Shown: positions 2,797 through 3,286 of the stretch, piece by piece
Position numbering within the stretch: the first letter of the stretch is position 1
Layout of the letters: every line of letters starts with the position of its first letter
Assembly: GCF_003334385.1 (NCBI RefSeq)
Contig: NZ_QOWN01000068.1
Strand: one strand, 5' to 3'
Length of the DNA stretch: 10,419 nucleotides
Origin: Escherichia coli
GTDB taxonomy: Bacteria > Pseudomonadota > Gammaproteobacteria > Enterobacterales > Enterobacteriaceae
Position numbers and translations under genes: made by a program
The notes under the pieces: generated by a model
Seen by the model: only the letters and a program-made list of their open reading frames with translations
The model's database searches: none
Told to the model about the DNA's origin: nothing

Positions 2797-2826
2797 GGAA
2801 AAAACAAAACCCGCCGAAGCGGGTTA
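2797..2826 (-). terminator. Intrinsic terminator at the 3' end of the hok transcript
   Basis: Minus strand: 7-bp stem (plus 2808-2814 aacccgc, 2819-2825 gcgggtt) with a UUCG tetraloop, followed by a UUUUGUUUUUU tract; about 70 nt downstream of the hok stop. Confidence 0.7.
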
Positions 2827-2893
2827 AGTGCGGGTGCGTTGAGGATGCCTGACACATCAGAGGTGGCGAGGGATTTCTCCCCCGCCTGGTCTC

Positions 2894-3049
2894 TTACTCC
2901 TCAGGTTCGTAAGCTGTGAAGACAGCGACCTCCGTCTGGCCGGTTCGGATTCGTACCTCGCAGAGGTCTTTCCTCGTTACCAGTGCCGTCACTATGACGG
3001 TTAAACAGATGACGATCAGGGCGATTAACATCGCCTTTTGCTGCTTCAT
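2894..3049 (-). CDS. hokD: Hok/Gef-family type I toxin, 51 aa, matching HokD (RelF) as recalled
   Basis: Translation MKQQKAMLIALIVICLTVIVTALVTRKDLCEVRIRTGQTEVAVFTAYEPEE matches recalled HokD; AAGGAG Shine-Dalgarno about 9 nt upstream of the internal ATG at 3049. Confidence 0.85.
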   Translation of the reverse strand: MKQQKAMLIALIVICLTVIVTALVTRKDLCEVRIRTGQTEVAVFTAYEPEE

Positions 3050-3106
3050 AGCCTGCTTCTCCTTGCCTTTCGGCACGTAAGAGGCTAACCTACATGTGTT
3101 CAGCAT
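2894..3106 (-). CDS. Mok-like in-frame N-terminal extension of hok (70 aa regulatory reading frame)
   Basis: In-frame upstream ATG at 3106 with GAGG 8 nt upstream; the N-terminus MLNTCR... parallels recalled MokC (MLNTCRVPL...), where mok is an extended frame whose translation gates hok. Confidence 0.5.
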   Translation of the reverse strand: MLNTCRLASYVPKGKEKQAMKQQKAMLIALIVICLTVIVTALVTRKDLCEVRIRTGQTEVAVFTAYEPEE

Positions 3107-3170
3107 GGATTGAGCCTCAGATTAATGTTAAGCGTCTTGCAGGACGCGTAATGTTAACTGGGGCTTTTCT

Positions 3171-3207
3171 CTATCTGCCTTTTGGTGTTCATGCCTGAGG
3201 CAGATAG
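3171..3207. repeat. 10-bp perfect inverted repeat (stem-loop) in the hok upstream region
   Basis: ctatctgcct (3171-3180) and aggcagatag (3198-3207) are exact reverse complements, 17-nt spacer; no flanking T-run on either strand, so not a terminator. Candidate hok mRNA or antisense RNA structural element. Confidence 0.4.
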
Positions 3208-3286
3208 CCTCAAGCACCCGCAGCAATTCTACTTAACTCACGTCACCTCGCCAATATGAAATCAATCAGAAAGGTGATCCATAAAA

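Follow-up and report, generated by a model that had tools for sequence, protein, structure and literature searches.

An intact form of hokD in a Qin-like prophage of Escherichia coli carries the sequence elements of a hok/mok/sok type I toxin-antitoxin cassette

Background

In Escherichia coli K-12 the toxin gene hokD, also called relF, is the third gene of relBEF in the Qin prophage. What kind of locus, then, is a hokD gene that is found in the company of other genes? The question is raised by a stretch of E. coli DNA of 10,419 nucleotides (contig NZ_QOWN01000068.1), which we call the window, and in which a hok gene lies on the minus strand. An earlier note on this DNA, made from the sequence alone, proposed that the gene belongs to an autonomous type I toxin-antitoxin module, distinct from relBEF, with a leader, a mok extension, a terminator and an unannotated Sok-like antisense RNA of its own.

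We are highly confident that the window contains, in the nin region of a Qin-like lambdoid prophage, a hok/mok/sok type I toxin-antitoxin cassette that is complete and autonomous, that this cassette represents the intact form of hokD, and that it is a close allele of hokW-sokW from Stx2 phages. This reading draws directly on the sequence elements and their homology, on the predicted alternative RNA structures and on covariation in the full-length structure. All the elements that had been named were found by alignment, and the proposal of an autonomous module therefore stands; its implied novelty does not, as the arrangement has already been described as hokW/mokW/sokW and is the majority state in E. 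coli.

Results

Genomic setting

Positions 1-4259 of the window are 99.9% identical to the chromosome of E. coli strain EC2 (NZ_CP058571). Read along the minus strand, the genes there are those for replication, then DUF1627, DUF977, QueH, hokD, one for a hypothetical protein, DUF968, RusA and the antiterminator Q. At 10104-10155 the window has a DicF RNA. The window is Qin-like lambdoid prophage DNA and the hok locus is situated in its nin region; a recent survey has found hok genes to be enriched in prophages (bioRxiv 10.1101/2025.08.07.668861). The relBEF arrangement, in which hokD lies directly 3' of relB-relE and is co-transcribed with them, is not the one seen here. The gene upstream is instead a QueH-like ORF (3287-3952 or 3287-3973; Pfam PF02677, E=1e-65), and we detected no homology to relB or relE anywhere in the window, as had been supposed from the lack of room for these genes upstream of hok.

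The toxin and mok reading frames

The Hok protein matches the Pfam family HOK_GEF (PF01848, E=3.5e-23, model positions 1-42 of 42) and PHROG 251, 'MokW-like host killing' (E=2.8e-33). Against the NCBIfam Hok models its scores were under the curated cut-offs, and we used Pfam and PHROGs instead, both of which are unambiguous. The coding sequence is 100% identical to K-12 hokD/relF at the nucleotide level, which bears out the initial identification of the product as HokD/RelF. When overexpressed, the HokD coding sequence is toxic (bioRxiv 10.1101/2025.08.07.668861).

The in-frame, mok-like extension starting at ATG 3106 was confirmed as a 70-codon ORF (Table 1). Since mok is in frame with hok, its product would be a 70-aa, N-terminally extended Hok. 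The extension, MLNTCRLASYVPKGKEKQA, is identical to that of MokW from 933W and similar to that of K-12 MokC. With a Shine-Dalgarno (SD) sequence of its own and homology to the annotated mokW and mokC, the ORF is an overlapping mok, through which hok would be translated. As far as the compared sequences tell, an in-frame mok is not unusual among hok loci: mok and hok are in frame, at a spacing of 57 nt, in the window, 933W, the PPompW prophage, Atlantibacter and hokC, and out of frame, at 58 nt, in R1, the P1-like phage-plasmid, Pantoea and hokB.

For comparison, eight loci were aligned with MAFFT: those of the window, 933W, the PPompW prophage, a P1-like phage-plasmid, a Pantoea plasmid, Atlantibacter and Klebsiella IncF plasmids, and K-12 hokB. 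Loci of the R1 type were found by tblastn with the R1 Hok sequence; L008 and L013 were used as intact references, and three others (L006 and L012 from E. coli and L007 from Klebsiella) were rejected as references because they have IS elements within the hok leader or at its edge. Two blocks are invariant across the eight sequences, AAGGAGAA at the hok SD and AGCCUCUUAC at dcb.

Table 1. Features of the hok/mok/sok locus in the window (nt, position in the predicted hok mRNA)
Feature	Position	Strand	Details
hok mRNA promoter	3226..3254	-	-35 TTGGCG (3254-3249), 17-nt spacer, -10 TAGAAT (3231-3226); from promoter scan
Full-length hok mRNA (predicted)	2800..3219	-	about 417-420 nt; transcription start 3219; 3' end in the U-run past the terminator
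tac (translational activator element)	3208..3219	-	GGGUGCUUGAGG; nt 1-12
5' stem-loop	3171..3207	-	perfect 10-bp inverted repeat, arms 3198-3207 and 3171-3180
ucb / anti-SD	3160..3166	-	AAGCCCC; nt 54-60
mok SD region	3113..3118	-	GAGGCU; nt 102-107; 8 nt 5' of the mok ATG
mok ORF	2894..3106	-	70 codons; ATG 3106; in frame with hok, stop codon common to both
dcb	3081..3086	-	AGCCUC; nt 134-139
hok SD	3059..3064	-	AAGGAG; K-12 homology begins here
hok (HokD) CDS	2894..3049	-	51 aa and stop; internal ATG 3049; named HokD by PGAP
3'-UTR stem-loop	2865..2886	-	GGCGGGGGA-GAAA-UCCCUCGCC; expected 3'-terminal hairpin of processed mRNA
fbi (fold-back inhibitory element)	2832..2844	-	CCUCAACGCACCC; nt 376-388
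Intrinsic terminator	2799..2825	-	AACCCGC-UUCG-GCGGGUU (hairpin 2825-2808), then U-run UUUGUUUUUU; from terminator scan
sok promoter	3063..3091	+	-35 TTGCCT (3063-3068), 17-nt spacer, -10 TAACCT (3086-3091)
Sok antisense RNA (predicted)	3098..3168/3174	+	71-77 nt; 5' end G3098

The hok mRNA

The Rfam covariance model RF01794 matches the minus strand at 3219-3044 with 120.5 bits (gathering score 59; E=1.1e-27) over positions 1-157 of 157. In this orientation the model represents the hok mRNA leader, and its end is the hok AUG. The -10 element of the hok promoter lies 6 nt 5' of GGGUGC, the family-conserved 5' end of the mRNA (RF01794 position 1, 3219), and a -10 is conserved in that position in 933W, hokC and the R1-like loci. 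Given a promoter of the sigma-70 type just 5' of RF01794 position 1, the hok mRNA is predicted to start at G3219. A transcript of 417 nt (3219-2803) folds with a minimum free energy (MFE) of -175.9 kcal/mol (z=-8.7 against shuffles).

Three landmarks that had been picked out at the outset were recovered. The spacer between the mok ATG and the stop of the QueH-like ORF, put at about 180 bp of non-coding DNA, measures 180 bp (3107-3286); the perfect 10-bp inverted repeat makes up the 5' stem-loop; and the UUCG-tetraloop hairpin is an intrinsic terminator, which is also present 3' of K-12 hokD. By analogy with R1, the stem-loop at 2865-2886 would form the 3' end of a truncated mRNA (PMC9841398).

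The sok gene

The annotated sokC of K-12 and sokW of 933W both align, in pairwise and in three-way comparison, so as to start at 3098, opposite codon 3 of mok. The 3' end would fall at 3168 by homology to sokW or at 3174 by homology to sokC. The earlier note had placed a Sok-like RNA on the plus strand near 3050-3170; strand and 3' end agree with our prediction, but the start shifts to 3098, and 3063-3091 is instead the promoter. Predicted as a 77-nt RNA, Sok forms a long terminator-like hairpin with a U-run (-32.7 kcal/mol, z=-6.0) and has a single-stranded 5' end of 7 nt.

The sok promoter of the window was located via homology and a relaxed pattern. It fell below the threshold of a generic promoter scan, which did not report it, and its -10, TAACCT, which lies 6 nt from G3098, matches the consensus at three of six positions. 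An automatic search detected the same layout (TTGCCT or TTGACC, 17-18 nt, TAnnCT) in the loci of 933W, the P1-like phage-plasmid, Pantoea, Atlantibacter and Klebsiella. On inspection by eye, we recognized it in the R1-type locus (TTGCGC-17-TATCCT) and in hokB (TTGCCG-17-TAAGAT), and the T-A-n-n-n-T positions of the -10 are kept in most of the loci examined. At the level of sequence, these features suggest a cis-encoded Sok that has its own promoter and is complementary to the mok initiation region. A literature search on the name 'sokD' gave unrelated matches only. Alignment with hokC/sokC and hok/sok loci, which had been put forward as a check on the module, located the sok promoter, tac, ucb, dcb and fbi, and the hok promoter as well.

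Alternative RNA structures and covariation

In the predicted fold of the full-length mRNA, tac pairs with fbi (3219-3208 with 2844-2832) in a helix of 12 bp with one bulged C, and ucb (nt 55-62) pairs with nt 100-107, which hold the mok SD. A repeat search, independent of folding, found a perfect 9-nt long-range inverted repeat at 3214-3222 and 2829-2837. Mimicking the 3' processing of the R1 mRNA, we removed the 3' end in silico at four assumed positions. The open form, in which tac pairs with ucb (nt 1-8 with 54-60) and the mok SD with dcb (nt 102-107 with 134-139), was predicted for one of the four; the other assumed ends gave the metastable 5' hairpin (nt 3-13 with 19-29), so that the prediction for the truncated form varies with the choice of 3' end. 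The same tac hairpin is what the nascent RNA forms in its predicted fold. Closed, open and metastable states all occur in the thermodynamic predictions, with weaker support for the open one, and they are the states that have been described for the R1 hok mRNA (PMC9841398).

The 5'-terminal 12 nt pair with the 3' end (tac/fbi) in the MFE folds of all eight homologues, a test that is not fully independent given that the 3' ends used for these folds were set by eye at fbi. An RNAalifold consensus of the eight loci recovers tac/fbi, the 5' stem-loop, the pairing of ucb with the mok SD, and the 3' stem-loop. Paired cells amount to 90.3% on the consensus structure as against 41-48% when the partners are slid by 1-3 columns; compensatory changes occur at 16 pairs as against 1-7 in the slid controls, and the observed covariation score was reached by none of 500 shuffles. 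Within tac/fbi, the R1-like loci have CG in place of a UA pair at tac position 4, and hokB has AU in place of a GC pair at position 12. The 5' stem-loop (helix 2 of alignment A4) has AU and UA in a 4:4 split at one pair and CG or UA at another, and the 3' stem-loop (helix 12 of A4) is conserved with compensatory changes. Some apparent mismatches in the R1-like rows are caused by an offset of one column in the MAFFT alignment. The covariation supports the full-length structure; the 5'-3' pairing of the whole hok mRNA, for which folding had been suggested as a check, is thus both predicted and covarying.

Comparison with hokW-sokW of Stx2 phages

The hokW/mokW/sokW locus of 933W (GenBank AF125520; also present in Sp5, which is VT2-Sakai) is 95.7% identical to the window over 418 nt (2822-3239). 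Identical in the two are tac, ucb, the mok SD, the mok N-terminal extension, dcb, the sok promoter, the hok SD and fbi; the 170-nt leaders have 3-4 differences, which all lie outside those of these elements that the leader contains (tac, ucb, mok SD, dcb and sok promoter). Both loci have an 18-nt extension of the Sok hairpin and an in-frame mok, and both lie in a lambdoid prophage. They differ at the C-terminus of the toxin, which reads FTAYEPEE in the window and FVDYESEK in HokW, and their sequences diverge past fbi, where the UUCG terminator of the window is absent from that position in 933W. They differ also in setting: the window locus belongs to the nin region, where QueH lies on one side of it and the DUF968/RusA/Q genes on the other, all in the same orientation, whereas the 933W locus is near the right end, on the strand opposite to the adjacent L0134 and L0135. 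Judged by sequence, the window locus is a close allele of hokW-sokW and a member of the lambdoid-phage hok lineage.

In the 933W record, features for mokW, hokW and 'SokW antisense RNA' have been present since 1999, and the system has been studied experimentally (Takada et al. 2021, PMC8621323). The HokW protein is toxic and is neutralised by sokW expressed from its own promoter, which makes the pair a toxin-antitoxin system of type I; a mutation in the sokW -10 abolishes the antitoxin activity and unmasks toxicity. On northern blots sokW is visible and vanishes after mitomycin C in a RecA-dependent manner, and HokW production depends on RecA and prophage induction. The effect of sokW is partly dependent on RNase III and Hfq, and smaller hokW RNA species are seen. 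After mitomycin C, hokW-sokW approximately doubles the release of Sp5 phage (all PMC8621323). With hokW/mokW/sokW already annotated and characterised, we rejected the description of the window locus as a new hokD-type autonomous module.

Comparison with hokD and hokC of K-12 and with plasmid R1

The hokD gene of K-12 is 98.9% identical to the window over 2800-3063 and lies in the same type of prophage, with DicF nearby. Its hok SD, 3' stem-loop, fbi and terminator are still in place, but the hok promoter, tac, the 5' stem-loop, ucb, the mok start, dcb and sok are all missing. The earlier statement that K-12 hokD is without control elements of the hok/sok type thus holds for the 5' leader but not for the elements further downstream. 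Window positions 3064-8533 are replaced in K-12 by relE-relB-ydfV-flxA...dicA, and the breakpoint, at 3063/3064, lies within or just downstream of the hok SD, at the sok -35. This comparison indicates that the upstream part of K-12 hokD was lost when relBE replaced it. This loss agrees with the 'genetic rearrangement' of hokD that is credited to Pedersen & Gerdes 1999 in the citation given by PMC7232551; an apparently intact hokD homologue in strain NRG857c has been noted as well (PMC7232551).

Among 5426 complete E. coli genomes, the leader and hok start (3000-3260) are at least 80% covered in approximately 4040, at up to 10 places per genome, a count that may include paralogues of lower identity. 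A longer stretch of 701 nt, which takes in the end of QueH as well as the gene downstream, reaches a coverage of 80% or more in 1441 of these genomes, and the relE-hokD junction of K-12 occurs in 1165. The intact form is the majority form in E. coli and probably the ancestral one, the K-12 form being derived.

The hokC (gef)/mokC/sokC locus of K-12 is approximately 80% identical across the locus, with the same order of elements and mok in frame. It lacks the 18-nt Sok hairpin extension, and its 3' end, where fbi would be expected, is cut off by IS186. The hok/mok/sok (parB) locus of plasmid R1 has the same architecture and the same alternative structures, namely tac/fbi, ucb with the mok SD, tac/ucb, the mok SD with dcb, and the metastable hairpin (PMC9841398), and the tac/fbi helix has been maintained by compensatory changes between the R1 and window lineages. 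Leaders of the R1-like plasmid loci align with that of the window only in short conserved blocks (blastn match of 47 nt, 87%), and HokW, which differs from the Hok of the window only at the C-terminus, is 44% identical to R1 Hok (PMC8621323). In R1, mok is out of frame with hok (spacing of 58 nt versus 57 in the window), and the locus is plasmid-borne, with a demonstrated role in post-segregational killing. There, exonucleolytic processing of the 3' end yields an active truncated mRNA, and RNase III cleaves the hok/Sok duplex (PMC9841398).

Discussion

How might the cassette work? By analogy with the experiments on R1 hok/sok and hokW-sokW, we infer that both RNAs are transcribed and that 3' processing, decay by RNase III, toxicity and a biological role would follow as in those systems. 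A constitutive promoter at 3254-3226 on the minus strand would produce an hok mRNA of about 420 nt, which would be closed by the pairing of tac with fbi and have its mok ribosome-binding site sequestered by ucb; in this closed form it would therefore be neither translated nor bound by Sok. Slow trimming of the 3' end, as far as the stem-loop at 2886-2865, would remove fbi, after which tac could pair with ucb and the mok SD with dcb, allowing mok to be translated and hok with it by coupling. Sok, a short, unstable plus-strand RNA running from 3098 to approximately 3170 and perfectly complementary to the mok start region, would block translation of mok and hok and mark the duplex for RNase III. 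Should the supply of Sok stop, through loss of the element or induction of the prophage, Hok would enter the inner membrane and the cell would be killed or lysed. According to the summary of Pedersen & Gerdes 1999 in bioRxiv 10.1101/2025.08.07.668861, the chromosomal hokA, hokB and hokC did not bring about post-segregational killing in earlier tests, and the biological role of the cassette may therefore not be addiction.

This scheme requires that the mRNA be activated. One could suppose instead that the locus is, like the chromosomal hok loci studied in the 1990s, an intact but functionally silent relic, transcribed into an mRNA that never becomes active and confers no killing or maintenance phenotype, and the folds of three of the four truncations tested, which are closed or metastable, would fit this. 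We consider it improbable: every element is intact, the structure has been maintained by compensatory changes, and about three quarters of E. coli genomes retain the locus. Moreover, the near-identical hokW-sokW, with its 3-4 leader differences, is toxic upon silencing of sok and has an effect on the release of phage (PMC8621323).

The cassette as we describe it also requires that hok be transcribed from its own promoter. If hok had no such promoter and were transcribed solely by read-through from the QueH-like gene and the early-right operon, it would be a late or early accessory gene of the phage and not an autonomous toxin-antitoxin module. Such a gene would be expected to be co-oriented with QueH and the replication genes, as hok is; a scan of the DNA from the QueH stop (3287) to the hok leader found no terminator-like site; and production of HokW depends on RecA and induction (PMC8621323). 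Yet TTGGCG-17-TAGAAT sits exactly where the 5' end of the family mRNA requires a promoter, and this -10 has been conserved in 933W, where the upstream context is a different one. In addition, tac works only when it is a free 5' end and pairs with fbi, a pairing that is conserved. Read-through may add to the native transcript, not replace it, and as the sole source of hok mRNA we think it very improbable. That the locus is a short hydrophobic ORF with fortuitous hairpins, resembling hok by chance, is ruled out by the Rfam (E=1e-27) and Pfam (E=3.5e-23) matches and by thousands of genomes whose annotated loci are 96-100% identical to it.

Returning to the autonomous cassette, its orientation suggests one further idea. 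Since hok is co-oriented with the early-right operon, from the replication genes to Q, and no terminator was detected after QueH, read-through is possible upon induction. We speculate, while thinking it rather unlikely to be correct, that such read-through across the locus occludes the convergent sok promoter and yields hok transcripts with an extended 5' end, in which tac no longer lies free at the terminus and the tac/fbi lock is altered. The cassette would then be not an addiction module but an induction-coupled accelerator of lysis that acts by transcriptional interference, and the hok terminator would double as a terminator of the nin region. If true, occlusion of the sok promoter could explain the RecA-dependent disappearance of sokW RNA.

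Conclusions

The module found in the window is a known one, annotated in 933W in 1999, characterised experimentally in 2021, covered by an Rfam model and present in most E. coli genomes. The practical value of the finding is for annotation: RefSeq/PGAP records of such loci label only the hokD coding sequence and omit mok and sok. Readers who know hokD from K-12 only may mistake the truncated relBEF arrangement for the usual one.

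A mosaic prophage of the Qin/dicB type

The full-length match to the DicF small RNA (see table) confirms that the window has a Qin/dicB-type prophage setting. Comparison with the EC2 prophage gave 99.9% identity over window positions 1-4259, whereas from 4260 to 10419 the match is patchy and reaches only 87-95% identity; from this fall in identity past 4259, we infer that the prophage is a mosaic and that the window comes from a strain other than EC2. K-12 Qin has relE-relB-ydfV-flxA-ydfW-ydfX-dicC-dicA (positions 5290-8470 of the Qin locus used for comparison) in place of all of window 3064-8533, a segment that spans the hok leader, QueH, the replication genes and the cI/cro-like genes. 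On the left, the breakpoint falls at the sok -35, either inside the hok Shine-Dalgarno sequence or a little downstream of it, and homology to K-12 Qin picks up again at the ydfA region.

Features located in the window and in R1-type hok/sok loci
Feature	Location	Strand	Source	Match or element
DicF small RNA	10104-10155	+	window	Rfam RF00039, 77 bits, E=5e-16, full length
QueH homologue (epoxyqueuosine reductase), prophage-encoded	3287-3952	-	window	Pfam PF02677, E=1e-65; PHROG 3217 ('unknown function')
Hypothetical small ORF, 92 aa	2448-2726	-	window	PHROG 1212, unknown function
IS interruption	L006 ~340-365		E. coli IncF plasmid	IS150
IS interruption	L012 ~253-279		E. coli IncF plasmid	IS150
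IS interruption	L007 ~379-450		Klebsiella plasmid	ISKpn28

Variation within hok/sok loci

Relative to hokC/sokC, the window carries an 18-nt insertion at 3132-3149, on both strands, whose sequence (GCGUC...GACGC) lengthens both the Sok terminator and the hok target hairpin. The insertion is also present in the 933W, P1-like and Pantoea loci, and in Pantoea it reads ACGUC...GACGU, a compensatory change.

In three of the first R1-type plasmid loci retrieved, an insertion sequence interrupts the hok leader or sits at its edge. The two IS150 insertions, in E. coli IncF plasmids, occupy different positions. These interruptions echo the IS inactivation of K-12 chromosomal hok loci, such as that with IS186 beside hokC.

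Separately, we observed that the Hok Tyr47 codon (2908-2911, minus strand) is TAC followed by G, giving TACG, the motif recognised by TadA, and that this is likewise conserved in hokW (GACTACGAA).

Genes flanking hok

Directly downstream of the hok terminator is the 92-aa ORF; in K-12, the rem gene instead lies between hokD and ydfU. Within the nin region, the QueH homologue is the immediate upstream neighbour of hok, and the QueH-hokD junction is common to approximately 1441 E. coli genomes. E. coli itself uses QueG, and given this enzyme of the host's own, the carriage of QueH by a phage may merit separate study.
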